In this document: positions 34,282 to 64,000 of the stretch, piece by piece
How the letters are laid out: every line of letters begins with the position of its first letter
Numbering within the stretch: position 1 is the first letter of the stretch
NCBI GenBank assembly: GCA_947174635.1
Contig: CAMWJS010000003.1
Location: 37,597 to 101,596, forward strand
Direction: 5' to 3'
DNA length: 64,000 nt
Origin: an uncultured Muribaculaceae bacterium
GTDB taxonomy: Bacteria > Bacteroidota > Bacteroidia > Bacteroidales > Muribaculaceae
Translations under genes and position numbers: made by a program
Notes under the pieces: model-generated
Told to the model about the DNA's origin: nothing
Database searches by the model: none
What the model saw: only the letters and a program-made list of their open reading frames with translations

Positions 34282-34288
34282 TGAATAG

Positions 34289-47353: not shown

Positions 47354-47484
47354 GGTTTCGGAAGAAATGCCCTTTTCTTCCGAAGTTTTCCGAATTTATA
47401 GCAATAACTTCCGAAATAATTGGAATAACTTCGGAAGAAATAGCAATAACTTCGGAAGTTATTCTAATAAATGGGGAAGGAATT
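47354..47484. repeat. Iteron array 1: six TTC(S)GAA palindromic cores phased 21-10-21-21-21 bp
   Basis: Cores start at 47357 (TTCGGAA), 47378, 47388, 47409 (TTCCGAA), 47430 and 47451 (TTCGGAA). The array ends with ataaatggggaaggaatt. It is homologous position-by-position to array 2, which lies 223 bp downstream. Confidence 0.9.
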
Positions 47485-47576
47485 TTACGCGAAATTTGCC
47501 CGAAAACAGCCATTTTTGAGGGGTAAAAATGACTCTGTTTTTACAATAAAAAATCAAAAAGGGAATTTATGCCCTT

Positions 47577-47707
47577 AATTTCGGAAGAAATAGGGATTAT
47601 TTCGGAAGTTTTCGGAATTTATTCGCATAATTTCGGAAAGAATAGCAATAACTTCGGAAAGAATCGGCATAACTTCGGAAGTTATTGCTATAAATGGGGA
47701 AGGAATT
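47577..47707. repeat. Iteron array 2: six TTCGGAA cores with identical 21-10-21-21-21 bp phasing
   Basis: Cores start at 47580, 47601, 47611, 47632, 47653 and 47674. The 21-bp unit consensus is TTCSGAARNAATNGCAATAAC. The array ends with the same ataaatggggaaggaatt tail. Confidence 0.9.
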
Positions 47708-47775: not shown

Positions 47776-48177
47776 TTATTTGTCGTTTTCGGCGGCGAGC
47801 TGCGCAAGGCGCTGCTCTATTGTGGTGGTGATGTCGCCCGACAACGACACCTCGGCTGACACGGACTGCATCTGTGGTGTGTGGTAGCGCAGCAGTTTTT
47901 CGTGGATGGTTGCGCGGTCTTTGGCTTCCATCATCATCATATCAACTTCGAAATCGGAAACGACAAGCGGATTGCCGTCGGCGTCTTGCAGCATGACGGT
48001 GTTGTATAGTTCGCCCTCTTTGGTCCTAAGCTCTAATGTGCGTGGTGTGCCGTCCCCATTCGTCTGTGGCCGTGGTGCAAAGTAGGCCATGGAATGGGCG
48101 CGTAAATGCTCTTTGAGGGGACTGGGTTTGTTGGGAGTGCCTTTTTGTCGGCCTCCGGTTTTTCTTCCTTGTGCCAT
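47776..48177 (-). CDS. Hypothetical small basic-N-terminus protein (candidate DNA-binding/regulatory protein of the element)
   Basis: 133 aa. The N-terminal motif MAQGRKTGGRQKGTPNK is a basic GRxKGxxNK-type motif common in phage and mobile-element DNA-binding proteins. A TAccTTTG -7 box lies 27 nt upstream on the minus strand. Confidence 0.6.
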   Translation of the reverse strand: MAQGRKTGGRQKGTPNKPSPLKEHLRAHSMAYFAPRPQTNGDGTPRTLELRTKEGELYNTVMLQDADGNPLVVSDFEVDMMMMEAKDRATIHEKLLRYHTPQMQSVSAEVSLSGDITTTIEQRLAQLAAENDK

Positions 48178-48258: not shown

Positions 48259-48801
48259 ATGATCGGCAGCATAATCGGCGGAGCGATGCAGGTGGGCGGC
48301 GCAATCTTTGGCGGCATATCGGCGAGCAAAGCCATGAAGAAAGTGAAAAAGAACATACAGGAGCAGCAGCGCAAAAACCAGGACTGGTACGACCGCCGCT
48401 ACAACGAGGATGCGACCCAGCGTGCGGATGCCCAACGCATATTGGCAAAGACCGAGGAATCAATCCGCAACCGCAACCGTCAGGCGGCGGGAGCTCAGGC
48501 TGTCATGGGCGGCACGGAGGAGAGTGTTGCGGCGGCTAAGGCAGCCAACAATCAAGCTCTTGCGGATGCCACATCTCAGATTGCAGTCGCCGGAGAACGG
48601 CGCAAGGATGCCATCGAGCAACAATATCTGTCGACTGACCAGCAGCTTCAGGCGCAATTGAACAACCTTGAAGTCAATAAGGCAAGCGCCATATCCCAGG
48701 CCGTGCAGGGCGTGGCGAAAGCCGGAGCCGGCATGGCGCAGCCGATTGATGGCGCTTATTATGCATATCCGGACGGCAAGAAAGGAGGGGGCAATGCCTA
48801 A
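48259..48801 (+). CDS. Hypothetical protein with N-terminal glycine-zipper membrane segment and Q/A-rich coiled coil
   Basis: 180 aa: MIGSIIGGAMQVGGAIFGGISASKAMKK, then NQDWYDRRYNEDATQRADAQ and Ala/Gln-rich helices. It is the first gene of the plus-strand operon. Confidence 0.65.
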   Translation: MIGSIIGGAMQVGGAIFGGISASKAMKKVKKNIQEQQRKNQDWYDRRYNEDATQRADAQRILAKTEESIRNRNRQAAGAQAVMGGTEESVAAAKAANNQALADATSQIAVAGERRKDAIEQQYLSTDQQLQAQLNNLEVNKASAISQAVQGVAKAGAGMAQPIDGAYYAYPDGKKGGGNA

Positions 48802-49867
48802 CAACAATCAGCAGTCAATAGTAGAGCGGCCTCAGGCGGAGAGGATGCAGGCTCCGGTTACAGAGTCCGAGGCTCATATTGTGCCGTCTCCGACAAATAC
48901 CGGGCAGCATGCGCAGAGAGACGAACCTACCGGAGTAGAAAATGTGTCGGTCGACAATCAGCCGCAGGTGAGAAACCCGGAAAATTGGCAGGAGGCGGTC
49001 GACGAACATTTTTCAGACTGGAAAGAGACTCCTCGGGCTGGAAGCATGCAGGATGTCGTGGATTATCTGGAAGGGCGTATGAGCGCAATACACATCCCGA
49101 CAAAGGAGGAACTTGAAAAGGAGCGCCGCCGCAAGCGTGCCGAGGGTTTAATCTCGGCTATTGCGGACGGGGCGAGCGCTATTTCCAATCTCGCGTTCAC
49201 CACTCAATATGCCCCCAATATGTACAAGCATGAAAACTCAATGACCGCAAAGTGGCAGGAGCGCTACGACAAGTTGAAGAAGGAGCGCGAGGCAGATGCC
49301 GACCGATATTACAACTATGCGCTGACAGTAGGCAAAATCAAGGAGGCTCAGGAAGCCAAAGAGTATCAGCGTGGCCGCGATGCGCTTAAGGACAGCATAA
49401 CCGCCGCAAAGGCCGAACACGATGCAAGACTTGCGGATATCAGGTATAAAGTAGTGGCTCAGAAATTGAGCGCGGCCGAAGCGGCCGAAGCCGAACGCGC
49501 TGCGACACGGGAGCTTGACAGAAAAATCAAGGAGGCGAAACTGGAGGAAATACAATCGCGGACAAACAAGAATAATCGTTGGCAACCCTCGGGTGGCAAA
49601 ACGGGGCAGTTCACTGTGTCGCGCATTAATCCACAAACGGGCGAGAAAGAATACAAGAGTGACTTCAGGTCAGAACCATCGGCAAAGAACTTCGCTGCGA
49701 CGCATTCGGATGATGGATGGGTATATGAAACCATACCCACGACAAGCACAACCACGAAGCCTAATAAATGGGGTAGGACACAGACAACCACAACCGTAAG
49801 GGATACATCGACACCCCGCAATGAAAATAACTCAGAAAAGAAGAAAAAACCCAATCCAATGGATTAA
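48794..49867 (+). CDS. Hypothetical coiled-coil protein
   Basis: 357 aa from the ATG at 48794, which overlaps the upstream stop (aATGccTAA). The track ORF starts at 48668 inside the upstream gene. The protein has a charged helical core (KEELEKERRRKRAEG.., EAAEAERAATRELDRKIKEAKLEEIQ) and a Thr-rich, basic C-terminus. Confidence 0.6.
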   Translation: MPNNNQQSIVERPQAERMQAPVTESEAHIVPSPTNTGQHAQRDEPTGVENVSVDNQPQVRNPENWQEAVDEHFSDWKETPRAGSMQDVVDYLEGRMSAIHIPTKEELEKERRRKRAEGLISAIADGASAISNLAFTTQYAPNMYKHENSMTAKWQERYDKLKKEREADADRYYNYALTVGKIKEAQEAKEYQRGRDALKDSITAAKAEHDARLADIRYKVVAQKLSAAEAAEAERAATRELDRKIKEAKLEEIQSRTNKNNRWQPSGGKTGQFTVSRINPQTGEKEYKSDFRSEPSAKNFAATHSDDGWVYETIPTTSTTTKPNKWGRTQTTTTVRDTSTPRNENNSEKKKKPNPMD

Positions 49868-49870: not shown

Positions 49871-52800
49871 ATGACAAACGACAACAAGCAAAAACTATAT
49901 AACGCCCTTTCTCGGGATTATGAGTTGGGGACATTCGAGAAATTCTGTACGGATATCGATGACAGTGTAAAGCGACGTAAATTATTTGATGCTGCTTCAC
50001 AGGACTACGAACTGGGCTCTTGGGAAAGCTTTTCCAAGCAGTTAGGTTATACCGATTCAACACAGGAGGCTCCTCTAATTTCATCAATAGTCAGAAAAGT
50101 GGAGGAACAGGCAAAGCAGCATGTCAGTGTTACGTCGGCCGCTTCGGGGAATGCCGGCGCCAACGTATCGGCCGAGGCTTCCGAGCAAGCCGCGCCTGCA
50201 GAGGCCGCGCCGGTTGATCGGGGGCAACAGTCCTGGATGCCGTCCGTGCAGGATAGGGTCCGTGCATCATATCAGATGCAGACAGTTGCGGACGGGTTGA
50301 GCCACCGTGCGGATGAAGGCGCAGCAAAAGTGGGGCGTATCAATGAACCGTTGACCGCCGAGGGCAGGGAGCACAGGAAGCAGAAAGAGATGGAAGCGCG
50401 GATGGCCGGAGCGCCAACAACGTTGCTGGGTCTGACGGGACCGTCTAAAGCGAAAGCGGATGAAGAAAAGAGCTCTGCGCCGACCGAGAAAGCGGAGTTG
50501 CGTCCTGATGTCATGTCGCCTGTGCCGTATGGCGTGGAGTATGTCGACGGCAAGGCTGTTACCAAATGGCTGATGCCCGACGGCAGCGTGACAACGAATA
50601 TGGCTGAGGCCGACGCAGTTGAATATACCGCAAGGCAGCAACGACTTCATGACACCTATCTGAAGAATACAAAAGATATAAGCATAGACATCCCGAAGGA
50701 GAAGTCTATACGTGTAGGCGTATCTGAGTCTTACGGCAAACCTGTTATAATTTGGCGGTTGCCGGATGGTAGTCTTAAAAAAAGCTATGCAACGCCCGAT
50801 GATGAGAAATTCATTAAGGAAAATCAGGAAAAGTTTGATGAATTTGGCGGAAATTTAATCTCTTATAAATTTAATCAGGAGGCAGCAGATATCGTACAAC
50901 CCAAAGCGAAAGAAGCAGCGGAACAAGCGTGGAAAGCAGCAGAAGCAGCTTACGGAGAGAAGATGGAGTACAATCGAAGGAATTCGAACATCTGGTTGAG
51001 TTCAGCGGGAAATAGTACGGATGCCGCCTCAATTAAGCAGCTGGAGACTATTGATAATTTCACTGACAGGCTTACCACTCATGATCTGGATGCTCTGATG
51101 GATGCGGCATGGTCCAACCTCGGTGAGGCAGGGCAAAAATCTCTCATCGATGATTGCTATAAGATATTGCAACGTCAAAATCCTGAAACAGACAAGATTG
51201 CTTTATACAATCTTGCTAAAGATTATGCCCGTCAACAGTCTGATAAATCGCTATATAATCTTGCCGTAGAGAAAAACATGCCGAAAAATGGTCTTGACTA
51301 TTTTATGCGTAAAATTAGTGACATGAATTTTGTTACCAATTTAGGCAAGGGAATTGCTGTCAATCGTGTGAAGAAAACCGGCGACATGGCAGCTTACGAA
51401 GCAGCCAACGAACAATACCGACAGGACGGTCACAAGATACTTGACGTGACCGGCATGGTTGCAGGTTTCGCTTTCGACCCTACGACATGGTTGTCGGCAG
51501 GTGTCGGCGGTGCTGCGACGCGCGGCACAATGTGGCTCGGCGGTCGTTGGATGGCAGGACGCGGCGCAAGTACAGCCGTTAAACAAGCCGCCACGCGTCA
51601 ATTTGCAAACACAATGACAGGTCGCCTTGTCGGTGGTGTTGTCGGAGGCTCTGTCAACTTCGGCACCTTTGAAGGTACCAAGGAATTGGAGAACCAATTT
51701 GCACATGGCGGCCATATAGTCGGGCAGGATGAAACAGGTCGATATATCAACGAAGGCTATTCTGCATCAGCTGTAGGAGGTCAGGTGCTTCACGGTCTCG
51801 GCATGGGTGCAGCCATCGGTTGGCTCGGTCCCGTTACAGGCAACGTATCCGACAAACTTGTCAGAGCGACAACAAGCACATTGGGCAAGGTCGCCACTCG
51901 CGCGGGTATCTATACGGGTGCCACAATTGCTGAGGGTACAATTTTCTCTATCCCCGAATGGATAGAGGGTGGGCGTGACGGCTTCGATGTGTGGACTGAC
52001 AACATGGCCATGATGGCCGGTTTCAAAGCTAAGCACATGGTAAAGAGTGCCGGTGGTATCCTGAGAGACCTCAAAGCATCTTTTGAAAGCCCCTCCAACG
52101 GAAGCAAGAACCGCTTGAACTTTGAGAGCTGCCTGCGGCAGCGCATGGATGCGCCATCTGACGGAGGTCTTGCACTGACAAAGGATGAGCAGGCCGAGCT
52201 GCAGCGTTATGGCTATGACCTGCGCGACCTTGTGGAGAGTGCAGAGCGCACCGGCAACGCCAAAGAGGGCGGTATTATCGCACAGAACGCGCCCGAAATC
52301 GTCAGCCGACTTACTGATATGGTAACCGATCCGCGTGTCAGCGAAGCGGCAAGAGCTAAGATGTATTACTACGCTACAGGCCGTAAGCTCCCGATGTCAA
52401 CCGTGATGCGTGGCGAACTGTTTGAGGACGGCAACGGAGGCTTCGTTGTAGAATCGCTGGGTGCCAACGGTGTCATCACCTCACGCTCATTTACGAATCG
52501 CAAAGCCGCCGACCTCGAATTGGAGCGCATCAGACGACAGTCAGAACTCAATCAACTTGAACTTGGTGAGCGGTATCAGCCCATTGCAGACTTTGAGAGC
52601 CGCATGATGGAGGCGAGCCGCAGAGTGGCCGCAAATCATGGTTGGAATCCTGTTGATGTATATAAGACCTGTGAAGATGTCCTTGATTCATATGTGCGTG
52701 GCAACAATAAAGAGTTGTCGGACGTGCAAAAGAATATATACAACAAGATACTTGCCGAGTTGGATAAAATCGAGGTATCAGATTTAGCGACCGAGAAGCG

Positions 52801-55800
52801 CACAAGAATCAACGCCAAATATGATGTTGATATTGACAAAGCAATACGGAAAGAGCCTAATAGACGCACTGAGGCAGAGCAGAAAGCAATTGATGAGTAT
52901 ATTGCCGAGCTGATGCCCCGTCGAAATTCGGGGAACGGAATGTTTGACGAAGCGGGACAGCGACTATTGCCCGCAGAAGGAGAGCCACGGGATGTAGAGG
53001 ATGTCAATTACAGAGAGGCGGATGAAACCGGACAGACAATAGAGCATCGTTTTAAGGATGATTATGATTTTGTAGGAGTAGAACCCCACAAGTCCGCAGA
53101 GCAGCCATTAGGCCGTGCGGTGATGAAATACCAAGACCGTCAGGTCGAGGTGTTGGACGGTCGTGTGGTGATGACAGGTGACGGTACTATGATTGACTGC
53201 GAGCGCAGCGAGAAAACCATCGTCGTTCGCGATATTGCCACCGGCAAGGTCGAGATGGTTTCGCCTGAGGCGATACTGTCGTATGAGGGGTATGCAGACG
53301 AAGGAGAATTGCTGGACGCTCCGATTTCTCCAGAAAGTCCTTCCGTGGGAGAGTCAGTAGGGGCAGAGTCAACAGGGGCAATCTCCGCTGCGCCCAATTA
53401 TGATCTATACGATACATTCAGCGTGAATATAGAGGGGCGCGACCGTCCGTTGCCGGCTGCAGTAGTGGAACGCGACGGCAATACCATCACTATATGGACA
53501 CCTGAGGCAGTCAATCAGGCGAGTGCCAAAAGTCGCACAATGCGCGGTTATCTTACAGACTTGACATCTGCAGACCTTGATGCAATTTTACAGCGTGACG
53601 CAGAGGGTAACCCCGTGGGGTATGTTTCCGCCAATCCTCCGCAAGAGACAGAGGCCCGGACGGACCTTTCCCATACTCCTGTTGACGGGCAGGGACAGCC
53701 TAAGCATGAAGAAGCCGGTTCTGATGCAGCACCGGATGTCATTGCAGGACAGGCGCAGGTGGACGAGGCGACGGCGACCGCCGACACAGCCGAATATGAC
53801 CGGGGCTATGAGCAGGGATTGGAAGACGCTGCAAAGGCTGATGACGCATGGATTGCGAACCTTATCAAGATATACAGCCAAAACACGCCCGAATCAATGC
53901 CCGAGATCATGAAAGGTCGGTTGGATGCATTCCTCTATGAGCAACAGCGCAGGGCAATGGAAGCGCAGAGCGTTCCCAATCCCGCCGCTCCAGTAGAAAA
54001 CGGACAGCAAACGGCCGATGATGGCTTCATCTCCATTGACCCTGCAATCAAGCCTGATGAGAATGGGAATATAAATATACCTGCCCCCGAAGCACAGGCG
54101 GAGCCGACCCCCCTGCAGCGTATCCCGCGTGATGAGCAGGGGGAGCCGATATTGACGCATGAGAGTGTCGATGCGGATACCGCGTGGGGCGGTGCTGTCG
54201 AATTCTTCGGTAGCGAAGACGACGCACGTTCGTATGTTGACGCTCAGGTAAAAAGTTCAGAGGCGGCCATAACAGCAGCGGAAAAGGCGGTCGGAAAAGT
54301 AAAGCCGACGGCCGGAATGACAAAATATCGCGAAGATCTAAAGAATGCGCGCGTAGCTGTAGATGCCGCCAAGTCGACTCTTGCCAGATGGAAGGAGATT
54401 GCAGAGGTGCATGACCGGCAGAAAGCGGAGGTCGAGGAAGCCAAGGCTGCGGAGAATGCATTCAAGGCGTCGATAACCCAAGGAAAGGCCGAGCTTGAGC
54501 ATGCATACGAGGAGGTGAAAGATGTGCCTGAGGCTGTCGAGATACTCCGGAATATGGAGCCGCAGAGCATAGACGAGGTTGCGGCGATGCTGCTTACCGG
54601 AAGCAAGGTGCTATGGAATGACGAGGGTGTGAAGCGTGGAATGAAGAGCATGCTGGGATATGGCGAGGGTGAACGGAAAGGATTGTTCGGTCTGTTCGCT
54701 GCGTCGAAAAACGGAGGTGAGACGCTGGAGCGCCTTGCTGAGGATAAGATGAAAGAGTTATGTGAAGCATACGGCATCGAGTACGACAACTACGATGCGT
54801 TGACGGCATTGACCGATGTGCTTGGAGCCTGCAGGACACGGGGCGACTTGCATAAGTACATACAGAACCGTCGTATCGCACAGGCGCTGCAGATGAAAGA
54901 TGACTTTGTACGTCATGTGGAAAAAGAGGCGGAAAGGATGTCGCAGGAGGCATACCATATGTCGGTTGCCGACCGGGAGGCATACGAGAGTCAGTTGCCG
55001 GACGAGATGAAGAAAATAGATATGAAAGATGCGGATATAGTGGAAATGAATGCTATATTTGCAGATGAAATCATAGAAAGGCAGAGATATGAAGAAAATA
55101 TCAGAAATGAGCAAGGACGAGCTGATAGCGTATTACCGGCAGGCTCAGACGTATTGCATGGAGAACAGGCTGATTACGGCGGAGGAATTCCGGAAACTTC
55201 GGCAGGAGAAAGGCGAATTGGGGGCGATGGCGGCGTTGATAGGCAGAATGGAGCTGCACCGGAAAGCACACCCGACAGAGAGCAAGGGAATGTAATAGAG
55301 GAAGCATATCAGAGAAATGTAACGAGATATGACCGGACTGTGCCTGCTACCCCTGAGGCACAGCGCTCGGCTATTTCCCGCATCATAGACTTTGCTAAAA
55401 ACGTAAGGAATCGCGTTGAGCGTGCCGTTATTGGCGGTATAACCAAGCGGCAGGCCAAAGATTTTGCGGATAATGGCATAGATGTGGATGAAACGTGGGT
55501 GCACTCATTCGAGTCCTCGGCGGTTGTTCATAATCAAGGTCGGCATGGAGACTCTCGTACCGAAGAACGCGCAGGCCAGATTGCCATTACTTCCGAAGAT
55601 TATGCGCGTATACCCGAAATACTTGAAGCCTATGACCGAGTGACAAAATCGCCGAACCGCTCACGCAGTACTGGTAATGAGGTCATTATTTATGAAAAGG
55701 ACTTTGATGATGGCTATATCTACTATTTGGAAGAGAAAAGGGATAAGCGTAAATCCTTATCATTCCAAACAATGTACAAAAAGAAAAAAGGAACTGATAG

Positions 55801-58800
55801 TTCCGACGGGTTGATGCCTGTTGCCTCTCCCTCTACGCCCACAGCGCCTCCGGACAATCTCAGTTCCAGTTCTGAGGGCAAAGGTATAAACTTTGCGTCA
55901 GATAAACAAACGGACGGCGTAGGAAGTTATGTACAACCTGCTGACAACAAGGGTGCGCAGACCATTCAGACCGCTGTTGAGGCTGCATCTTCCGAGGTAA
56001 ACACCGAACCTACCGAGGCACAGAAAGCCGCAGGCAACTACAAGATGAAACACCGCCGTGTTGACGGCTACAACATCAGTATCGAGAATGCCAAAGGCAG
56101 TGTGCGCCGTGGTACCGGAGCAGACGGAAAGCCGTGGGAAACCACGATGCAGAATGACTACGGCTATATACGAGGAACCGAGGGTGTGGACGGCGACCAC
56201 ATTGATGTTTTCCTGTCGGACACCCCCGAAAAGGGAGATGTGTTTGTCGTCGACCAGGTTAACGAGGACGGCTCTTTTGACGAGCATAAGGTAATGTATG
56301 GCTTTCCCTCGGAGGAGGCCGCACGCGCAGCGTATCTTTCCAACTATGAACCAGGATGGACGGGACTCGGCGAAATAACTCATGTCAGCAAGGATGAGTT
56401 TAAAAAATGGATTAATTCGAGTAGACGCAAGACTAAGCCCTTTGCTGACTACAAAAGCGTTCGTGACATCACTAATAATGTAAAGCAGGCTATTCAGGAG
56501 ATATTAGTCTCAGACAATTACAGAGCAGTCGTAGTTACCGACTCGTCGGGAAAAGAGACCTATAGAGTTCTATTAAACAAAGGGGCTCGTAAAAAAGAGT
56601 GGCAGATAAAGTCGGAGTTACATAACGGCCACTATAGTTCTGATGGTTATGGAACTCTCATATTCTCAAGTCGAAATGACATGGAGGCATGTCTTGACGA
56701 TAGGGATGCAGACATTGATATCCTGAATAAACGTTTGCTCAGAAAGGATGATGAAAATCGCCGTAAGAAGAGAACAGAGTGGAAGGCCTCAATGCTTGAG
56801 AAAATAAAAGGAATGTCGACTGAAGACCTTCGACATAACATTGAACTTTACGACAAAGCACCAGACCGCCGACATGATGAGGAAAAGGAGGTAATCGATG
56901 CCGCTCGCCAAGAGTTGAGGCTTCGCGATGCCGCGGTGAAAGATGCGACGGATGATTCAGCCGAAATCACGCGACTGAGTAAGAAATACCGGTCAGCACC
57001 TATAAAGGTTGTCAAATCAATTGAGGATATTAAATCAGATGATCTCTCGGAAGATACATTGGAAGAGATTGCCGGAGCTATGGAAGAGGCAGAAACTCAG
57101 GCAATCTACTGCAAAGAGAATAAAAAAATATATATCTTTGCGGGTAAGTATCAGGATGGCGAGCTCGATTACATTGTAGCTCATGAAAGTGTGCACGCAG
57201 CAGTGGACAAACTTGGGCTAAGAAATGGAGAAGAGCTAAATTATTACCGTAAATCTATTGCAGGTATTTTCGACAATGAAGCTCCAGCGGAATTAAACAA
57301 GATCATCTCAGAGAAATATGCACCAGAAGATGAGGATGAGGAGTTTTTGGCTTATACTCTCCCATGGATTAGCCGAAACAAAAAGCGTATGCGTAAGGTA
57401 CTTGAACACGGTGAGGGCAGACTGGTAGATTTTATAAATCAATTAAACGAAGAGATATATGGAAAAGAAGAGATACAATCAATGCTCTCCGCCACTGAGG
57501 AGAGAACTCCTACTAATGTTCATGGGGGACGAGGAGGACAGGTTCGAGGACGAAGAGGAACAGCCGGAACCATCACAGGAGACGACTCAGGAGGAGACGC
57601 CGACACCGGAAACCGACAGATAGAAGATTTCGGGGAGAAGATAGCGGGGGCGCGCAAAGATGCACTTAGTGCATTTGCCAAGACGATAGAGAATGTGTCG
57701 GTGCAGTCATTGATAGAGCTTCCGATGTCAAAGGCCTTTACCCGTCCTAATCTTCGAAAGATGGTGGAGACGGGCGCTATCAGCGACGAAGATGCCATTC
57801 TTGCTGAGGCTATACTTCAGGGGCAGATTTATGCGCATCGGAAGCCTGCGCTCACCAAGCGGCAGAGCAGCAAAAAAGCCGTAGAGGAATGGGCGAGAGC
57901 CACCTATGGCGGCATATCAATGCTCGGCGAGATATTGAGCGGAGACCCTTCACGTCGTGAGGCGGCTATCTTGCAGTATAATGAAAGGCTTGCGGCAGAG
58001 CTCGAAGCTGCCAATGCCCATGTGGCCAAGATGCGCGAGTGGAATCCAGGCAAAAAAATTGAGGATGTCAAAGCGATACCCAATCCCATCGATATAACGC
58101 GAAGGGTGCTTGAGGGTATCGGTTATCATGTGGGAGATGCAGTTAAACTGCCTCTGACAAATATCGAGCTAAGTTCTAACAAACAATACTACATAGTCGG
58201 AAGTGCCGGCAAGCAGGGCGCATTATGGTTCAAGATGCACCATGACACACTTGATGGGGCGGTAGACACAATGATAATGGCGGCCAAGCTTGCACGTGGA
58301 GACCGCGATGTGGAGCTGCCGTTGCGACAGTTTGTGACAAAAGGCGTAGGGACCCCGCATAAAGAGCTGACCGGCAAATATGAGGTGTTGTATTTTGCCA
58401 AAGATGGCAAGACTGTCAAGAGCCGAGTGTTTGACGGTAAGGACAAAGCCGAGGTATTTGCCGCTGACAGCAAGGGATTGATGAGGGAGTTGGTGAAATA
58501 CACCAATGACTTTGACGCATACGCTATTGAAGCAATCAATCCATTGACAGGAGAACGGCATACGTTGCGCGACGATTTCGGCAGCCGAGCCGAAGCATCG
58601 ACGTGGATAGATGAGTCGTATGAGGAAGCCAATAATCTTGCTCTTGATGCGCTGTACAAAGAGATGAATGTCGAATCGACGCCACGCAGTCATTACTATG
58701 TGGAGTCCGTGTTCCGTCACGGCAAGATGGTTGGAAGGGTAGTCGAGGACGACAAGAAAAATCCGTGGCGCCTCACCAAGTATTTTGAGAGTCGCAAAGA

Positions 58801-61800
58801 GGCCGATGAATGGCTTGCTGCCAATGCAGAACGACTGGAGACAGAGCGCAAGGCTCATCTTGATCAGAAGCGCAAAGTAGTATATTTTAAAAACACCGAC
58901 GGAGAACGTCAAGGTGTAGACTACCGAGGCGGAGAGGATGCGACGCCGGAGATGTTTGGCGAGACATTCGGGTTCAGGGGAGTGCAGTTTGGCAACTGGA
59001 CTAACAATGCAGACCGTCAGGCGGCATTAAACCAGGCGTATGATGCGCTGATGGATTTATCAAATGAATTGGGTATCACACCGCGAGCGGTGTCGCTTGA
59101 CGGAGAGCTTGGGCTGGCGTTTGGAGCTCGAGGGACTGGGGGAGCGACAGCGCATTATGAACCGGTGGAGGTTGTAATTAACCTAACCAAAACAAAGGGA
59201 GCCGGAGCGTTGGCGCATGAATGGTGGCATGCTGTTGATAACTTTTTGTCGCGCAAGGCCGGTGTGGCCATGGGATATGCTACAGCACGAAACGGATTGG
59301 AAGGCATGCGTCCTGAAATAAGGGAAGCAGTGGCTGAACTGATGGACGCTTTAGATAATTCCGCCTATGCCCGTCGCAGCCGTGACAAAGGAGATTATTG
59401 GGGGCGACCTACCGAGCTTGGTGCGCGACTGTTTGCAGCATGGCTTGCGGAGCGGATGAAAGAACGGGGTGTTGAAAGCCCGTTCCTCACTACAGGACTG
59501 AGCGAAGCGGCATGTGACATGTATCAGCGCTTCAACTATATTATGTATGAGATGCGCGAACGTGATAAGGCAGAGATAGAAAATCGGGAGCCTGGCATTA
59601 TGTCGCGTGAAGAATTCAACAAGTTGCCGGAGTCACTGCATGGATATCCATATCCTACAGCTCAGGAGATAGAAGATTTCGGCGGTCATCTTAGCACTTT
59701 GTTTGGCGCCATGTCAGAGAGGGAGAAGGAGAGCGGCAGCATTGCGAATGAGCGAGGCGGCAGATACAAGAAGCTGCGGTCGACAACTGCCGGCATGAGT
59801 CTTTTTGACTGGGCGGATGCCGAGGAAATCCGACACCGACATAGTAAGTCGGCTGATGAGAAGGCATTGACGGCAGAGGTAGCCAATAATGCGCTCGACG
59901 AATATGCCGAGGCTTACAATAATTATCTCGACCGATGGGAAGATCTTGAAAGGCGCAAAGCGGAGGTCGATAAGGACAGCATGGAGGCACAGGGATTGCA
60001 GGAAGCCATAGAGCAGGAAGAGAGAATGGCAATCGAGGCGCGCGAGCGGCTTATTGAAGCGTTGAGCGATTATTATTTGCGGGACAATACACCCGAAGAT
60101 ACCCGACGAATAGCCCGCGACATGGCGGCACGAGTACAGGCTGAGGTCGAGATACGTCGTGACCGCAACCATATATTAAGTGATATATTAACCGGAGGAG
60201 GTGGAGTTGAACCGATTGACGGAAAGCCGGAGCAGGCAGAAGCAAAGCAGGTAAAGACAGCAGGGGGCAATATCAGTTATAATGCTCTTGGACATTTGCC
60301 TGATGCCAAAGCAGGAGAGTTTGCGTATGTAGAGCGACAGTTCAGCCGCACGGGAGACTTTTTGTTTACCGGTAACGGAGTCATCAAAGATCGAGGCGAT
60401 GTGGCGTATCTGTTCAAGGCGCTGGAGGATTATTCGATTGAGCATGTGTTTGCAGCATTCGTCAAGGATGGCAAAGTCAAGGTGTTGCATATAGGGATGG
60501 GCGGACCGACATCGAGTTTTGCCGATCTCGGAGCGATAAGAGCAGGTTATGATGCCTTTGGTGCGGATGCAGTTTATCTGGTGCATAACCATCCGTCGGG
60601 AAACCTGTCGGCCAGTGTGCCTGACATGAGGCTGATGAAAACGCTTGAGGCTGCGTTTGGTGACGAAGTGGCAGTAGGCGGTATCATCATAGACACAACG
60701 TCGGGGCGCTACACTACTTTTGGTGGCACAGGTGAGACCGGTCGATATGATATGAAGCAGAACGGAGGTGAAGATGCGGTTGACGTCATGCGGTTTGATG
60801 GCGTTGACCGAAGCGCCGGCAGAAGCGAAAGCGTTATAATAGCCAACTCGGCCGATATTGCCCGATACGTATCAGAGCGTCGACTTGGGGCAGGTGACAA
60901 GATAAGTTACCTTGTATTATCAAACAGGAATGAGATTGTAGGCAATTTCCATACTGACTATGATAAACTTGATGCTTCGGGGCTTGCGGAGGAGATAGCG
61001 AGTGTTACCACCAAGTACGGAGGTACGCGTGCTGTGGTTTATGGTAATGTCAAAATCAATAAGGCTCGTGAACTGAGTGCGGAGGTATCGAGACTGAGTC
61101 TTGGTGCCATCAAGATGCTTGACGCTATAGAGGTGACGAATGGCATCAACCGCAGCGCCAATGATGACGGCCTGTTGTATGAGCCGGGCAGCGAGTTCTC
61201 AGATACGCAGAATGGAGAGAAGCGCTACCGCGAACTTGAAAATGACGCCCGCCAGCAGGAAATGGCGCAGACCTCGCCGGAGGCCAAAGGTGCCCACGTA
61301 GAAAAGCTGGCGAATAAATTCAATACTCCTATTCGGATTGTCAATGACATCAACGAGCTGAGGAGCGAGAATGCCGAGCAGCAGGAGCGCATGCGACGCA
61401 GCAAAGCTTTCTATGTATCGGAGACCGGAGAGATTACGGTCGTACTACCCAACAACACAACTGTGGAGGATGTAGCAGAATCCGTGCTTCATGAGGTCGT
61501 GGCGCACAAGGGACTGCGGGAAATGATTGGAGAGGAAAACTACGATGCTTTCTGCGATGAAGTTTATAAACACCTCAAGGGTATTTTAAAGCGGCAGATC
61601 GATAAGGAAACTGCACGTAGCTTCATGCGAGAGCCGGAGAAAGGCTACGAATATCATCGCCGTGTAGCTGTAGATGAATTGTTCGGACGCTTGAGTGAAA
61701 AGGGGTTTGAGGATTTCACCGAGCCTGAGCGTGGCATCTGGAAGAAACTCAAAGCAAAAGTGCTGGAGGCAATCAACAAGTTCCTCGGTTCGCTGAAACT

Positions 61801-64000
61801 GCCCAAGTGGGTGAAACTCGGTGATAACGAACTTCGCTATATACTGTGGCGCAGCCACGAGCGATTGCGCAACAAGGATTATGTCGATATGGCCCGCGAT
61901 ATAGCCAAACGCGAGGAGTTGGGGTTGAGAAGCAATGAGGCGGTCAGAGAGCGGAAGAGTGCAGAGGAGGTGACGGCAGACAGAATAGTGAAGACGTTTG
62001 ATGAGGCAATCTCGGGAGACTTAAAAGGTAAGCCTGTAGAAGTGGGCCGGTTGACAAAAGAAGGAAAAGAGTATCTTGAAAAACTGTCGGGAATAAGGAT
62101 GAAAGAGGATGTTTCGTTCGTTCTCAATCCGTCAGACCTGGTTCATATATACCGTCGCCACTACGGTGATAATGAAAAGGATGTGCGCAATATACCATTG
62201 ACCAAAGAAGATATCAGACAGATGTCTGAAATTGTGTCAACACCCGACCGCATTGTATATGGAAAAGAAGCAGATGGTAATCAGCGTAATATGTTCTTCT
62301 TTCTAAAAGAAGCCGTAGACGGAAGCTACAATCTCATGGAGGTCTATTCCGACAGAAAAGGGAATCTGACAGCAAAAAGCTTCTTTAAAAGCAAAGAGGG
62401 CGTATCCCAACGTGTAATGCTACTCAATGAGTCCTCTACACTTACGTCCGTAACGGATGGGGCAACCCTCTCAGATGCAGCAAAGTTACCAAAATTCTTT
62501 GAGAATCCAACAATTGCAGAGGAAGAAAGTTTTGAATATCGTTTCCGCGATGGTGAGACCGGCGACATCTGGAAGGATCAGAGCGTGGGATTGGAAGAGC
62601 GTATTACCAATGCCGCCATACGACTGAGCAACAATCATAGCGGCGACCTGAGCCTGCGCAATGACGCTCAGAAGGCCGTTATTGACAATCTGCAAAGCCT
62701 GTTGCATGAAATGCGTAACCGCCGGGGCACCGCCCGAAGTTTTGTCGGTGCCGACCGCAAGGTAGAAAGTGGCGTTGTCGACGCGATGAACGCGCAGGCG
62801 ATGTTTGACCGCGCCACCGTCAAGCGAGTTTCCAACCTCGCGCGTATCCTCCTGCAGAACGGCTACCTCTCGGATATGACTTCCGGAGAAATGCAGAGGT
62901 TGTTGTCGGCGGTCAAGAACTCTACCGCCATGCACGATATAGCCGACAGTGTGCAGAAGATTATGGACATCATGGTCAATAATCAACTCCGCAATGCCGA
63001 GGGCGCACTGCGTCAACTCCTGTCAATACGTGGCAGCAAGGTTGATGCGAGAGGTGTAGAGGTGCAGGGAGTGCTTGACGTAGAGGGTCAGCGCACAATG
63101 GAGGTGGTGAAGGACGCAATCTCACTCACCGAGGATGACATCACCGACCGCATTGATGAGGCGCTGAACAGAATGAGTGATCCCAACCAAACCATAGCCG
63201 ACAATGCTGCCATTGAGTATGTCGGCCTCAACATGGCACTCGACTACGTTCAGAACATTGCGAACAGTAAAACAGAGGAGAAAACACTTCGTGATGGGCT
63301 CAAGCGAGCCAAAGAAGACAGGGATGCAGGACGCATGACCGATGATGCCTACAAGCAGTTTGTTGAAACCGCCGAGGATGCAATCCGCAAGAATAAGATT
63401 GAACGTGCTGAGGCATATTTCAATCTTGTCGGCAGGTTGTCTGATTCATTACGCGGCAGCATTGAGAATGCCAAGGCTTTCCGCGAGGCGGAGAAAGCCC
63501 GCGTGAATGAGATTCACCACAATGCCAACTCCGACATGGAGGGTAGACCTGCAAACGAGCACCATAAGGATGATTGGAAAGACAAGTTTGCCAACAATGG
63601 TTTCGTTCAGTTCTTTTTTGCGCCCCTCGGTACCTTCGACCAGATACTCCGCGTGTTCGGCAACAAGAGTGCCAATGGCGAGGGTTATCTGTGGAACCGC
63701 TTCATGCGCGGTTGGGTAGATTGCCGCAACAAGGAGTTGCTCGGTGTGAAAGAGAAATACGCGCGTCTGGACGAAAAGGCCGCAGAGCTGTTTGGCAAGG
63801 GCAAGACTTGGGGCAACCTCATCAGAATGGAGGCGAAGATGCCGAAGGCTACCGTTTCATTCTGGGACGGGGATGAAATGCGCGACCATGAACTGACACA
63901 GGGTAACCTGCTCTACATCTACATGGTAGACAAAATGACGGACGGACGCATGAAACTGCGACGCATGGGTATCACAGAGAACGATATTGCCAAAATTGAA
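49871..64000 (+). CDS. Giant polyvalent-type multidomain protein, 5' 4,710 codons (3' end beyond window)
   Basis: ATG at 49871 is preceded by an in-frame TAA (49865-49867) and GTG (49868). I translated this frame manually from 49871 to 64000 and met no stop codon; frame phase was spot-checked by coordinate arithmetic at about ten positions (49913, 55082, 55529, 56189, 57182, 59216, 60584, 61490, 62144 and the final codon ending at 64000). It is absent from the supplied ORF track, apparently because it has no in-window stop. Only short antisense or off-frame ORFs are listed across this 14.1 kb. Confidence 0.9.
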   Translation, partial: MTNDNKQKLYNALSRDYELGTFEKFCTDIDDSVKRRKLFDAASQDYELGSWESFSKQLGYTDSTQEAPLISSIVRKVEEQAKQHVSVTSAASGNAGANVSAEASEQAAPAEAAPVDRGQQSWMPSVQDRVRASYQMQTVADGLSHRADEGAAKVGRINEPLTAEGREHRKQKEMEARMAGAPTTLLGLTGPSKAKADEEKSSAPTEKAELRPDVMSPVPYGVEYVDGKAVTKWLMPDGSVTTNMAEADAVEYTARQQRLHDTYLKNTKDISIDIPKEKSIRVGVSESYGKPVIIWRLPDGSLKKSYATPDDEKFIKENQEKFDEFGGNLISYKFNQEAADIVQPKAKEAAEQAWKAAEAAYGEKMEYNRRNSNIWLSSAGNSTDAASIKQLETIDNFTDRLTTHDLDALMDAAWSNLGEAGQKSLIDDCYKILQRQNPETDKIALYNLAKDYARQQSDKSLYNLAVEKNMPKNGLDYFMRKISDMNFVTNLGKGIAVNRVKKTGDMAAYEAANEQYRQDGHKILDVTGMVAGFAFDPTTWLSAGVGGAATRGTMWLGGRWMAGRGASTAVKQAATRQFANTMTGRLVGGVVGGSVNFGTFEGTKELENQFAHGGHIVGQDETGRYINEGYSASAVGGQVLHGLGMGAAIGWLGPVTGNVSDKLVRATTSTLGKVATRAGIYTGATIAEGTIFSIPEWIEGGRDGFDVWTDNMAMMAGFKAKHMVKSAGGILRDLKASFESPSNGSKNRLNFESCLRQRMDAPSDGGLALTKDEQAELQRYGYDLRDLVESAERTGNAKEGGIIAQNAPEIVSRLTDMVTDPRVSEAARAKMYYYATGRKLPMSTVMRGELFEDGNGGFVVESLGANGVITSRSFTNRKAADLELERIRRQSELNQLELGERYQPIADFESRMMEASRRVAANHGWNPVDVYKTCEDVLDSYVRGNNKELSDVQKNIYNKILAELDKIEVSDLATEKRTRINAKYDVDIDKAIRKEPNRRTEAEQKAIDEYIAELMPRRNSGNGMFDEAGQRLLPAEGEPRDVEDVNYREADETGQTIEHRFKDDYDFVGVEPHKSAEQPLGRAVMKYQDRQVEVLDGRVVMTGDGTMIDCERSEKTIVVRDIATGKVEMVSPEAILSYEGYADEGELLDAPISPESPSVGESVGAESTGAISAAPNYDLYDTFSVNIEGRDRPLPAAVVERDGNTITIWTPEAVNQASAKSRTMRGYLTDLTSADLDAILQRDAEGNPVGYVSANPPQETEARTDLSHTPVDGQGQPKHEEAGSDAAPDVIAGQAQVDEATATADTAEYDRGYEQGLEDAAKADDAWIANLIKIYSQNTPESMPEIMKGRLDAFLYEQQRRAMEAQSVPNPAAPVENGQQTADDGFISIDPAIKPDENGNINIPAPEAQAEPTPLQRIPRDEQGEPILTHESVDADTAWGGAVEFFGSEDDARSYVDAQVKSSEAAITAAEKAVGKVKPTAGMTKYREDLKNARVAVDAAKSTLARWKEIAEVHDRQKAEVEEAKAAENAFKASITQGKAELEHAYEEVKDVPEAVEILRNMEPQSIDEVAAMLLTGSKVLWNDEGVKRGMKSMLGYGEGERKGLFGLFAASKNGGETLERLAEDKMKELCEAYGIEYDNYDALTALTDVLGACRTRGDLHKYIQNRRIAQALQMKDDFVRHVEKEAERMSQEAYHMSVADREAYESQLPDEMKKIDMKDADIVEMNAIFADEIIERQRYEENIRNEQGRADSVLPAGSDVLHGEQADYGGGIPETSAGERRIGGDGGVDRQNGAAPESTPDREQGNVIEEAYQRNVTRYDRTVPATPEAQRSAISRIIDFAKNVRNRVERAVIGGITKRQAKDFADNGIDVDETWVHSFESSAVVHNQGRHGDSRTEERAGQIAITSEDYARIPEILEAYDRVTKSPNRSRSTGNEVIIYEKDFDDGYIYYLEEKRDKRKSLSFQTMYKKKKGTDSSDGLMPVASPSTPTAPPDNLSSSSEGKGINFASDKQTDGVGSYVQPADNKGAQTIQTAVEAASSEVNTEPTEAQKAAGNYKMKHRRVDGYNISIENAKGSVRRGTGADGKPWETTMQNDYGYIRGTEGVDGDHIDVFLSDTPEKGDVFVVDQVNEDGSFDEHKVMYGFPSEEAARAAYLSNYEPGWTGLGEITHVSKDEFKKWINSSRRKTKPFADYKSVRDITNNVKQAIQEILVSDNYRAVVVTDSSGKETYRVLLNKGARKKEWQIKSELHNGHYSSDGYGTLIFSSRNDMEACLDDRDADIDILNKRLLRKDDENRRKKRTEWKASMLEKIKGMSTEDLRHNIELYDKAPDRRHDEEKEVIDAARQELRLRDAAVKDATDDSAEITRLSKKYRSAPIKVVKSIEDIKSDDLSEDTLEEIAGAMEEAETQAIYCKENKKIYIFAGKYQDGELDYIVAHESVHAAVDKLGLRNGEELNYYRKSIAGIFDNEAPAELNKIISEKYAPEDEDEEFLAYTLPWISRNKKRMRKVLEHGEGRLVDFINQLNEEIYGKEEIQSMLSATEERTPTNVHGGRGGQVRGRRGTAGTITGDDSGGDADTGNRQIEDFGEKIAGARKDALSAFAKTIENVSVQSLIELPMSKAFTRPNLRKMVETGAISDEDAILAEAILQGQIYAHRKPALTKRQSSKKAVEEWARATYGGISMLGEILSGDPSRREAAILQYNERLAAELEAANAHVAKMREWNPGKKIEDVKAIPNPIDITRRVLEGIGYHVGDAVKLPLTNIELSSNKQYYIVGSAGKQGALWFKMHHDTLDGAVDTMIMAAKLARGDRDVELPLRQFVTKGVGTPHKELTGKYEVLYFAKDGKTVKSRVFDGKDKAEVFAADSKGLMRELVKYTNDFDAYAIEAINPLTGERHTLRDDFGSRAEASTWIDESYEEANNLALDALYKEMNVESTPRSHYYVESVFRHGKMVGRVVEDDKKNPWRLTKYFESRKEADEWLAANAERLETERKAHLDQKRKVVYFKNTDGERQGVDYRGGEDATPEMFGETFGFRGVQFGNWTNNADRQAALNQAYDALMDLSNELGITPRAVSLDGELGLAFGARGTGGATAHYEPVEVVINLTKTKGAGALAHEWWHAVDNFLSRKAGVAMGYATARNGLEGMRPEIREAVAELMDALDNSAYARRSRDKGDYWGRPTELGARLFAAWLAERMKERGVESPFLTTGLSEAACDMYQRFNYIMYEMRERDKAEIENREPGIMSREEFNKLPESLHGYPYPTAQEIEDFGGHLSTLFGAMSEREKESGSIANERGGRYKKLRSTTAGMSLFDWADAEEIRHRHSKSADEKALTAEVANNALDEYAEAYNNYLDRWEDLERRKAEVDKDSMEAQGLQEAIEQEERMAIEARERLIEALSDYYLRDNTPEDTRRIARDMAARVQAEVEIRRDRNHILSDILTGGGGVEPIDGKPEQAEAKQVKTAGGNISYNALGHLPDAKAGEFAYVERQFSRTGDFLFTGNGVIKDRGDVAYLFKALEDYSIEHVFAAFVKDGKVKVLHIGMGGPTSSFADLGAIRAGYDAFGADAVYLVHNHPSGNLSASVPDMRLMKTLEAAFGDEVAVGGIIIDTTSGRYTTFGGTGETGRYDMKQNGGEDAVDVMRFDGVDRSAGRSESVIIANSADIARYVSERRLGAGDKISYLVLSNRNEIVGNFHTDYDKLDASGLAEEIASVTTKYGGTRAVVYGNVKINKARELSAEVSRLSLGAIKMLDAIEVTNGINRSANDDGLLYEPGSEFSDTQNGEKRYRELENDARQQEMAQTSPEAKGAHVEKLANKFNTPIRIVNDINELRSENAEQQERMRRSKAFYVSETGEITVVLPNNTTVEDVAESVLHEVVAHKGLREMIGEENYDAFCDEVYKHLKGILKRQIDKETARSFMREPEKGYEYHRRVAVDELFGRLSEKGFEDFTEPERGIWKKLKAKVLEAINKFLGSLKLPKWVKLGDNELRYILWRSHERLRNKDYVDMARDIAKREELGLRSNEAVRERKSAEEVTADRIVKTFDEAISGDLKGKPVEVGRLTKEGKEYLEKLSGIRMKEDVSFVLNPSDLVHIYRRHYGDNEKDVRNIPLTKEDIRQMSEIVSTPDRIVYGKEADGNQRNMFFFLKEAVDGSYNLMEVYSDRKGNLTAKSFFKSKEGVSQRVMLLNESSTLTSVTDGATLSDAAKLPKFFENPTIAEEESFEYRFRDGETGDIWKDQSVGLEERITNAAIRLSNNHSGDLSLRNDAQKAVIDNLQSLLHEMRNRRGTARSFVGADRKVESGVVDAMNAQAMFDRATVKRVSNLARILLQNGYLSDMTSGEMQRLLSAVKNSTAMHDIADSVQKIMDIMVNNQLRNAEGALRQLLSIRGSKVDARGVEVQGVLDVEGQRTMEVVKDAISLTEDDITDRIDEALNRMSDPNQTIADNAAIEYVGLNMALDYVQNIANSKTEEKTLRDGLKRAKEDRDAGRMTDDAYKQFVETAEDAIRKNKIERAEAYFNLVGRLSDSLRGSIENAKAFREAEKARVNEIHHNANSDMEGRPANEHHKDDWKDKFANNGFVQFFFAPLGTFDQILRVFGNKSANGEGYLWNRFMRGWVDCRNKELLGVKEKYARLDEKAAELFGKGKTWGNLIRMEAKMPKATVSFWDGDEMRDHELTQGNLLYIYMVDKMTDGRMKLRRMGITENDIAKIE
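51440..52040 (+). other. Gly/Ala-rich hydrophobic (glycine-zipper / TM-like) block inside the giant ORF
   Basis: Translated: VTGMVAGFAFDPTTWLSAGVGGAATRGTMWLGGRW..GRLVGGVVGGSVNFGTF..AVGGQVLHGLGMGAAIGWLGPVTG..AGIYTGATIAEGTIFSIPEWI..NMAMMAGF. Confidence 0.6.
55355..55790 (+). other. Barnase/EndoU/ColicinE5-D/RelE-like (PBECR-type) nuclease-like module 1
   Basis: Translated: ..TWVHSFESSAVVHNQGRHGDSRTEERAGQIAITSEDYARIPEILEAYDRVTKSP..GNEVIIYEKDFDDGYIYYLEE. The H..(G)RHG motif (55529-55549) followed by 'ITxEDyxxIPEIL..xD.V' is the pattern I associate with PBECR domains of polyvalent proteins. Confidence 0.5.
56030..56420 (+). other. Inorganic-pyrophosphatase-like module
   Basis: Translated: GNYKMKHRRVDGYNISIENAKGSVRRG...NDYGYIRGTEGVDGDHIDVFL (DGDHIDV = 56189-56209)...VNEDGSFDEHKVM. 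This parallels the family-I PPase core NYGYI..T...DGDPvDVLV ... DExGExDxK. Confidence 0.5.
57100..57420 (+). other. HEXXH (zincin-like) motif region 1
   Basis: Translated: YIFAGKYQDGELDYIVAHESVHAAVDKLG, with HESVH at 57182-57196. Downstream acidic residues (PEDEDEEFLAY) are possible third ligands. Confidence 0.4.
58950..59500 (+). other. HEXXH (zincin-like) motif region 2
   Basis: Translated: FGFRGVQFGNWTNNADRQAALNQAYDALMDLSNELGI...ATAHYEPVEVVINLTKTKGAGALAHEWWHAVDNF, with HEWWH at 59216-59230. Confidence 0.5.
60350..60700 (+). other. RadC-like JAB/JAMM domain
   Basis: Translated: ..AVYLVHNHPSGNLSASVPDMRLMKTLEAAFGDEVAVGGIIID. HNHPSG-x5-S-x-PD (60584-60625) is the canonical RadC/JAMM metal-binding signature. 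Confidence 0.75.
61400..61860 (+). other. HExxxH-containing conserved module (possible divergent metallopeptidase)
   Basis: Translated: VEDVAESVLHEVVAHKGLREMIGEENYDAF.. (LHEVVAHKGLREMIG = 61487-61531). The spacing is HExxxH, not the canonical HEXXH. Confidence 0.35.
62050..62410 (+). other. Barnase/EndoU/ColicinE5-D/RelE-like (PBECR-type) nuclease-like module 2
   Basis: Translated: VLNPSDLVHIYRRHYGDNEKDVRNIPLTKEDIRQMSEIVSTPDRIVYGKEADGNQRNMFFFLKE (HIYRRHYG = 62144-62167). It has the same H..RHG + LTxEDI..xxEIV..PD.I pattern as module 1. Confidence 0.5.

Follow-up and report, generated by a model that had tools for sequence, protein, structure and literature searches.

The window analysed here is a stretch of 64,000 nucleotides from an uncultured Muribaculaceae bacterium (contig CAMWJS010000003.1), and its right-hand part is taken up by a single giant gene for a polyvalent protein, that is, one very long chain in which unrelated catalytic domains are strung together. 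An earlier note on this DNA had recognised a mosaic of enzymatic modules at 55355-62410, had assigned it to the polyvalent proteins of Iyer et al. (2017) (J Bacteriol, PMC5512222), and had left open whether a phage or a conjugative element carries it. That interval is real, but it covers just the effector-rich central part of the gene, which extends from 49871 to past 64000. The plus-strand frame that contains all of the quoted motifs is stop-free from 49868 to the window end, and the gene starts at the ATG at 49871, right behind the stop of the upstream gene; as the frame is open from this ATG to the window end, 4,710 stop-free codons are visible. The complete product was found in an HMMER search of 1.84 billion cluster representatives as a protein of 5,479 amino acids (P0195; 612 kDa, pI 5.2) that is 100% identical over the visible part. 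It is encoded on contig JAIDVS010000006.1 of assembly GCA_029059545.1 (hereafter, the source contig), the DNA of which is identical to the window across the overlap, and the identical giant protein is on record for more than one contig. We consider it likely that the region is the effector-rich middle of an intact gene of a temperate, podovirus-type phage, encoding a phage-type polyvalent protein that is packaged and ejected. The gene and its recognised parts are as follows.

49871..64000, plus strand, truncated by the window end: giant polyvalent protein gene (open frame; full-length identical protein P0195)
50651..52933, plus strand: conserved N-terminal block (N-block), kept in 66 IMG/VR loci at 31-76% identity
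55433..55798, plus strand: PBECR3 copy 1, a predicted BECR-fold RNase, holding HNQGRHG (PF18812, E 1.6e-20, 73.6 bits)
56015..56416, plus strand: InPase with DGDHIDV, a family I pyrophosphatase of the polyvalent type (PF18823, E 5e-58 to 2.7e-59, profile covered in full, 1-135)
56894..57553, plus strand: region around HESVH, weak paralogue of block c (blastp)
57524..57610, plus strand: Gly/Arg-rich low-complexity linker (direct sequence reading)
58706..59710, plus strand: LPD5, CLCA_X-type zincin, and LPD1 as one conserved unit (Pfam, NCBIfam)
58706-58966, plus strand: LPD5 (Pfam E 3.6e-8)
59381-59710, plus strand: LPD1 (Pfam E 1e-9)
60410..60655, plus strand: RadC-like JAB domain (PF04002, E 6e-7; 29.8 bits, cut-off 22.1)
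61229..61963, plus strand: block c, a putative atypical zincin with LHEVVAH (consensus HEVVGH; family conservation)
62075..62401, plus strand: PBECR3 copy 2, holding HIYRRHYG, in a variable cassette slot (PF18812, E 7.8e-13, 48.8 bits)
62471..64000, plus strand, with about 770 amino acids more past the window: start of the conserved C-terminal block (C-block), present in about 100 of 101 loci

The domain identities in the middle of the protein come from hmmscan against Pfam, in which all five families (PBECR3, InPase, LPD5, LPD1, and RadC) scored above their gathering cut-offs. These families were defined in the 2017 survey (Iyer et al., 2017), and the return of two PBECR3 copies together with InPase, LPD5, LPD1, and RadC bears out the assignment of the giant protein to the polyvalent class in the sense of that survey. 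The motifs lie where they had been reported (HNQGRHG, 55529-55549; DGDHIDV, 56189-56209; HESVH, 57182-57196; HEWWH, 59216-59230; LHEVVAHKGLREMIG, 61487-61531; HIYRRHYG, 62144-62167), and the RGG stretch, given as about 57520, begins at 57524. Both of the modules that the earlier note called nuclease-like are PBECR3 (PF18812 cut-off, 30 bits), and PBECR domains are predicted RNases (Iyer et al., 2017). The two copies carry the motif VH-x3-RH-x0,1-G (VHNQGRHG and VHIYRRHYG), with the conserved His of the family present, and they are not a recent duplication because their mutual identity is just 27%; copy 1 is rare among relatives. The pyrophosphatase-like module is indeed InPase, its acidic metal-binding motif DxDxxD is intact, and the domain is found in about 40 of the 101 related loci; the 2017 survey describes InPase as a phage-type domain that is probably virion-packaged (Iyer et al., 2017). 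The JAB signature of the RadC-like domain was located exactly, at 60584-60625, but its spacing is HNHPSG-x4-S-x-PD and not x5; the JAMM site HxHx7Sx2D is intact (HNHPSGNLSASVPD), with IEH upstream. Two HExxH motifs are seen in the giant protein, compared with 0.12 expected by composition. The observation that more than 4,700 amino acids pass without methylase or helicase modules extends to the complete product, as a DarB-like methylase-helicase dyad (N6-adenine methylase and SNF2/SF2 helicase) has no match in the full 5,479 amino acids. Pfam profile scans of the giant protein also returned no lysozyme or transglycosylase domain.

Two modules of the middle, and perhaps a third, have the appearance of zincin metallopeptidases, and their three H-E-H motifs are more than noise. 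The NCBIfam model for CLCA_X (NF041907) matches 58907-59260 (E 1.7e-34), with HEWWH inside the match and between LPD5 and LPD1. This match is limited to model positions 3-120 of 250, and its score (119 bits) is below the whole-protein cut-off of 260 bits because just half of the model aligns. Across 43 aligned homologues, the site keeps its H, E, and H invariantly, and the next Asp is conserved in at least 90% of them. For an AlphaFold2 model of the LPD5-zincin-LPD1 unit (predicted local distance difference test score, pLDDT, 84.5), the top folds in the PDB are all zincins (anthrax lethal factor, PprI/IrrE, aminopeptidase N, selecase, abylysin, and Wss1), and none of the matches in this search was significant (best E 0.03). 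CLCA_X proteins are predicted metalloproteases, often very long, that occur mainly in phages, prophages, and plasmids (Lenart et al., 2013, PMC3650047). The giant protein differs from that family in its HEWWH motif, which reads HExxHxxD in place of the published HExxHxxxD (PMC3650047), and in aligning with the N-terminal half of the model alone.

Block c carries LHEVVAH, which is HExxxH and not HExxH. It is conserved in about 93 of the 101 related loci, 14 diverse relatives retain its H, E, and H without exception, and its AlphaFold2 model (pLDDT 80.7) has a three-stranded sheet followed by the motif helix. Matches to this model in BFVD with E-values of 7e-13 to 1e-3 are chunks of large phage polyvalent proteins, weaker matches there are SprT-like, IrrE-like, and M34 peptidases, and no Pfam model covers the domain (hmmscan). 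The zincin reading of block c therefore draws on the invariant H/E/H, the predicted topology, and the weak BFVD matches. The region around HESVH aligns with block c in blastp (E 0.005, 25% identity over 118 amino acids) with the H-E motifs matched to one another, and it has no Pfam match. For polyvalent proteins in general, the hub zincin MPTase was proposed to cut the chain into units (Iyer et al., 2017).

Relatives of the giant gene are numerous. The C-terminal 529 visible residues recruit 19 loci in Bacteroidales genomes and 95 IMG/VR contigs, the genome loci including metagenome-assembled genomes of Duncaniella, Muribaculaceae, Prevotella, and Bacteroides as well as the type strain of Prevotellamassilia timonensis, while the N-terminal 900 residues recruit 66 IMG/VR loci, many on contigs also found by the C-terminus. 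Merging N- and C-terminal IMG/VR loci allowed 32 intact open reading frames of 6,260-7,423 amino acids to be reconstructed, and where a viral contig appears complete (about 58-66 kb) the giant gene makes up about 30% of the genome. With E<=1e-3 as the threshold, 510 HMMER cluster representatives (50% identity) match, and 310 still do so at E<=1e-30; most have lengths of 4,000-7,000 amino acids. In two further IMG/VR contigs, 3300045988_072574 (loci L074 and L150) and 3300008096_000278 (L077 and L135), the longest open reading frame has 3,611 amino acids and begins inside the methylase region; the giant gene there is either split into two open reading frames or disrupted.

When the window protein is mapped onto the relatives, the family shows a common layout: the N-block (about 760 amino acids), a semi-conserved stretch, a highly variable middle, block c, a variable slot, and the C-block (about 1,280 amino acids). 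Conserved ends thus enclose a swappable middle. Ahead of the N-block, residues 1 to about 57 (49871-50050) hold the tandem motif DYELGTFEKF and DYELGSWESF and match PHROG 24532 (function unassigned; E 1.2e-9), and the proteins of relatives have comparable short beginnings, among them MANPNDNLRRLY and MPNPNDKVKNLY. Hydropathy analysis places Gly-rich, moderately hydrophobic segments of the N-block at 51437-51841. The slot behind block c, filled by PBECR3 in the window, is occupied at or near that position by LPD3, MuF_C, PBECR2, or nothing in relatives. In 14 relatives, the 3,333 residues that precede the C-block were scanned for domains, which gave SNF2/Helicase_C in 11, InPase and RadC in 6 each, MuF_C in 5, LPD1 and LPD3 in 3 each, Kinase-PolyVal, MutS_I, PBECR1, and LPD5 in 2 each, and LPD13, LPD23, ART-PolyVal, and N6_Mtase once each. 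RadC was listed in the 2017 survey as exclusive to conjugative-type polyvalent proteins (Iyer et al., 2017); its presence in 6 of these 14 family members contradicts that limit. By BLAST, a DarB-like methylase-helicase region is found in 30 of 34 reconstructed relatives, and therefore the window protein, which does not have it, is a minority variant, together with gp3 of the cultured Bacteroides phage BS-TP4 and two others.

The earlier note had spoken of a minimal genetic context, which proved wrong: the gene lies in a prophage with an integrase, a T7-gp14-family protein, and portal, terminase, and capsid genes. The prophage sits in a Bacteroidales (Muribaculaceae-like) genome, integrated downstream of a chromosomal pyruvate phosphate dikinase gene (42189-44903) that lies directly upstream of its left end. 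The genes of this prophage ahead of the giant gene include the following.

45119..46615, plus strand: tyrosine integrase at the prophage left end (Phage_int_SAM_5, Arm-DNA-bind_5; PHROG integrase, E 1e-22)
47776..48177, minus strand: 133-amino-acid conserved protein, divergent from the virion-protein genes (no family match)
48259..48801, plus strand: 180-amino-acid internal virion protein of the T7 gp14 family (PF24072)
48794..49867, plus strand: 357-amino-acid coiled-coil, Thr-rich protein (no Pfam, PHROG, or NCBIfam match)

Past the integrase, homologues of which (55-89% identity) open 17 of the 34 reconstructed IMG/VR contigs, the order is two small minus-strand open reading frames, an array of TTCGGAA repeats, the 133-amino-acid gene on the minus strand, and then virion-type genes. 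Across the 34 relatives, the genes for the 133-, 180-, and 357-amino-acid proteins lie just upstream of the giant gene in most. The 133-amino-acid protein occupies the same position in 31 of the 34, at 33-91% identity. The T7_gp14 profile PF24072 is matched by the 180-amino-acid protein over positions 5-176 of 187, with E 3.5e-8 and 34 bits (cut-off, 27), and the precomputed annotation of the source contig names this family too. In 32 of the 34 relatives, the gp14-like protein is 58-77% identical and its gene invariably precedes the giant gene immediately; where it keeps this level, the N-block of the giant protein falls to about 33% identity. The 357-amino-acid gene starts in overlap with the stop of the gp14-like gene and ends 3 nucleotides before the ATG of the giant gene, and a central segment of its product (residues about 82-206) is conserved at the same position in relatives. 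Downstream of the giant gene, the source contig encodes a P22-like portal, followed by a 706-amino-acid gene on the opposite strand at the position of the large terminase and a 510-amino-acid gene at that of the capsid protein; in one relative (L005), the counterpart of the first is recognised by large terminase families of PHROG and that of the second by the Pfam model for the SU10 major capsid protein. Gene order, together with the layout of BS-TP4, therefore identifies a prophage of the podovirus type and not a conjugative element, and so the choice that had been left open is decided for a phage by the genes around the giant gene.

Several further observations were made on this prophage family. 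The 180-amino-acid protein has a sub-threshold NCBIfam match to SctB, a type III secretion translocon subunit (E 4e-5, 23 bits; cut-off 37), which may mean no more than that both are helical and rich in Ala and Gln, with a Gly-rich hydrophobic helix at the N-terminus. The repeat array is iteron-like and extends over 47357-47680, with 12 TTCGGAA/TTCCGAA cores in two clusters (47357-47451 and 47580-47674) at 21-bp phasing; the background of this core is 0.16 per kb. The seven closest relatives also have a dense cluster of this type ahead of the giant gene, and a more distant clade does not; the array could be an operator, an origin, or a set of arm-type sites. A second very long gene is found a few kb downstream of the capsid gene, reaching more than 1,027 amino acids at the edge of one locus (L172, 35108-36440) and 2,645 amino acids in BS-TP4 (gp14, record positions 26961-34898); BS-TP4 gp14 is reported to be the target of a diversity-generating retroelement (Gut Microbes 2025, PMC12694917). 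The sole tRNA gene in the window, tRNA-Glu (CTC) at 6749-6822, lies a long way from the prophage and does not serve as its attachment site. Relic open reading frames of the giant gene are present without the rest of the phage in other Bacteroidales chromosomes, at L001 4332-14207 (1,890, 565, 402, and 433 amino acids), L171 10001-12356 (290 and 204 amino acids), and L170 10001-12283 (760 amino acids, with PBECR2), and the three long-contig matches that were examined (P0019, P0035, and P0040) are such chromosomal relics and not intact genes; the homologous-protein search from which they came yielded fragments shorter than 1,000 amino acids and nothing longer. Two of the three relics adjoin a pyruvate phosphate dikinase gene, and the 3' side of this gene therefore looks like a recurrent attachment site for the phage family.

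The data establish the domain identities, the prophage setting, and the family layout of conserved ends around a swappable middle; what follows on function is inferred. In its most likely role, the giant protein is probably an ejected internal virion protein that delivers anti-defence effectors. The gp14-like protein, the 357-amino-acid protein, and the giant protein would form an internal virion (ejection) set packaged near the portal and expelled ahead of the DNA, with the conserved terminal blocks of the giant protein serving encapsidation and either envelope passage or channel formation. The modules of the middle would then act in the host cytoplasm in the first minutes, perhaps after self-cleavage by the zincin-like modules: PBECR3 may cut host or defence RNAs, InPase may remove pyrophosphate or nucleotide-type signals, RadC may take part in nucleic-acid processing, and the methylase-helicase of most relatives may provide DarB-like shielding of the incoming DNA. 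It is conceivable, if doubtful, that the terminal blocks represent a new ejection and encapsidation scaffold, namely a podovirus ejectosome fused into one chain of 0.6-0.8 MDa and self-cut after delivery by the atypical HExxxH and CLCA_X zincins, with a cassette bay between the blocks that is reloaded with anti-defence enzymes. Were this so, an abundant family of gut phages would constitute a natural modular platform for protein injection, and the known size limit of proteins that traverse a phage tail would be raised.

A number of results weigh against this reading of the giant protein. We infer its packaging and ejection indirectly, from genetic context and from the sharing of one module with gp47 of phage phi24B, and how a chain of 612 kDa would fit in the capsid and pass through a podovirus tail is unexplained. 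The N- and C-blocks have no match in Pfam, PHROGs, NCBIfam, or PDB sequences by phmmer and profile searches, and a profile of the N-block compared with T7 gp15 and gp16 by hhalign reached a probability of <1%; because neither block matches a known family, a role for them is read from position and conservation. The assignment of the 180-amino-acid protein to the gp14 family depends on one profile of a low-complexity helical protein, and BLAST of this protein to T7 gp14 itself was negative. The profile scans that returned PBECR3, InPase, LPD, and RadC, as the earlier note had anticipated, gave no match in the giant protein for another family it had named, MPTase-PolyVal (PF18818). A MuF domain, a portal-binding domain, and a lysozyme were likewise not detected in the giant protein. 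Finally, the assignment of block c as a zincin is weak: its predicted structure has no significant Foldseek match in the PDB, where the top hit is MATCAP.

Four alternative accounts of the gene were weighed. One is that the giant protein is mainly a structural or internal-core protein (a scaffold, a pressure or DNA-spooling core, or a channel) in which the enzyme modules are degenerate passengers. Over half of the chain, made up of both terminal blocks and long helical linkers, is indeed devoid of an enzymatic signature, the terminal blocks are its most conserved parts, and its place between the gp14-like gene and the portal resembles that of core proteins. However, the catalytic signatures are intact (JAMM, the DxDxxD of InPase, the His of PBECR3, and the invariant HExxH), and the middle consists of conflict-effector families that turn over among relatives in the pattern of an arms race and not of decay, making this account unlikely. 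We regard as quite unlikely the proposal that the protein is a prophage weapon expressed by the lysogen, acting in superinfection exclusion or as a MuF-type or polymorphic toxin, and not an injected cargo. PBECR and MuF_C do occur in toxin systems as well (Iyer et al., 2017), the gene lies near the prophage end beside the integrase, a common site for morons, and fragments of it persist in chromosomes without the rest of the phage. Yet in all the relatives that were examined it belongs, together with virion genes, to a conserved module, and it is co-oriented with the gp14-like and 357-amino-acid genes, themselves an overlapping pair separated from it by the 3-nucleotide gap; no immunity gene, secretion signal, or secretion-system gene lies nearby, and 16 kb would be very large for a moron.

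The other two alternatives concern the nature of the locus. An origin in a conjugative or integrative element, with the polyvalent protein delivered by a type IV secretion system, would be in keeping with the adjoining integrase and with RadC, given the place of that domain in the 2017 survey, but there is no relaxase, type IV secretion gene, or ArdC-N domain, the portal, terminase, and capsid genes stand directly behind the giant gene, relatives are found on viral IMG/VR contigs of 58-66 kb, a cultured phage has the same arrangement, and InPase is a phage-type domain. We consider this origin highly improbable, and it was rejected on genetic context. That the giant open reading frame is an assembly chimera or a decaying pseudogene has next to no probability. 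Such an artefact might have been suspected from a source that is a metagenome-assembled genome, from the two reconstructed relatives in which the longest open reading frame is so much shorter, and from the existence of chromosomal relics, but the window holds its 4,710 codons without a stop, an identical protein is recorded on more than one contig, the 32 independently assembled intact orthologues are joined by hundreds of clusters, and BS-TP4 has a colinear gene of 5,391 amino acids. Dozens of independent intact orthologues exclude the reading as an artefact or pseudogene.

The preferred reading, an ejected polyvalent protein of a podovirus-type prophage, matters for several reasons. According to prediction, a mobile element opens its assault on host defences with polyvalent proteins, of which almost none has been studied experimentally. 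The present family is abundant in gut Bacteroidales, as the 510 clusters indicate, and BS-TP4 has been found in 31% of 930 viromes. Putative delivery parts (the conserved ends) and payload (the swappable middle) are kept apart in the layout of the family, and a cultured relative exists. The family also sharpens a question raised by phi24B, that of how a protein of several thousand residues is stored in a capsid and passes through a short tail. Additionally, a detail of the 2017 survey is corrected, because RadC occurs in phage-type polyvalent proteins.

The giant protein shares with the polyvalent proteins of Iyer et al. (2017) a single very long chain with unrelated catalytic domains (PBECR, InPase, LPDs, RadC, and a putative zincin), a gene beside virion genes, and orthologues that show mosaic domain turnover. 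It differs from them in size (5,479 amino acids here, up to 7,423 in relatives, and about 30% of the genome), in the combination of InPase, listed as phage-only, with RadC, listed as conjugative-only, in zincin-like modules of the CLCA_X and HExxxH types in place of a profile match to MPTase-PolyVal, and in large conserved N- and C-terminal blocks of unassigned fold. The earlier description of this protein as uncharacterised is true experimentally, but the class had already been described, with Bacteroidetes prophage examples in the 2017 survey. Kinase and MutS-I domains were reported there from polyvalent proteins of Bacteroidetes phages and prophages (Iyer et al., 2017), and the class, probably the lineage too, has therefore been seen in silico before. 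In the literature, we found no link between the giant-gene family and polyvalent proteins, Quimbyviridae, or Bacteroides prophages.

The closest cultured relative is BS-TP4 (PQ571277.1), a temperate Bacteroides phage of 64 kb with the same gene order: a small gp1, gp2 of 393 amino acids, gp3 of 5,391 amino acids, and gp4, the portal. Its gp3, which also has no methylase-helicase, gives colinear matches that include an InPase at 58% identity; it differs in that just about four short segments align (27-58% identity) and the C-block is not detectably alike. In the paper on this phage, gp3 is annotated as 'hypothetical' and is not discussed (PMC12694917). A better-studied parallel is phi24B gp47, with homologues of the 933W/VT2-Sakai type (PHROG 616), which has the LPD5-zincin-LPD1 unit in common with the giant protein at 37-38% identity and belongs to a phage that is also temperate, of the podovirus type, and about 60 kb in size. 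This protein is abundant in virion proteomics, is not seen in the cryo-electron microscopy reconstruction, and has been proposed to be an ejection protein (bioRxiv 10.64898/2026.04.10.717836). At 2,811 amino acids, gp47 is about half as long and cannot be aligned outside the unit, and the Bacteroidales protein, unlike gp47, is known from genes alone.

With T7, the locus shares a gp14-family protein followed by two co-oriented genes, the last of which is the largest, as in gp14/gp15/gp16, and a podovirus-type genome. It departs from T7 in having no lytic transglycosylase domain and in a third protein that is four times larger and carries effector enzymes. P1 DarB and the N4 virion RNA polymerase are further precedents, both being very large capsid-packaged proteins that are delivered with the DNA and act at the start of infection. 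The methylase-helicase dyad of DarB recurs in those 30 of the 34 relatives, while the window protein has neither this dyad nor an RNA polymerase, and P1 is a myovirus, unlike the podovirus-type phage here. In the N4 virion RNA polymerase, terminal regions for encapsidation and injection flank a catalytic middle. The giant protein is an unusually large, experimentally untouched example of a known polyvalent class and not a new kind of system; where it is more novel is in its two terminal blocks, which defy assignment, and in the physical challenge that delivery of so large a protein poses.

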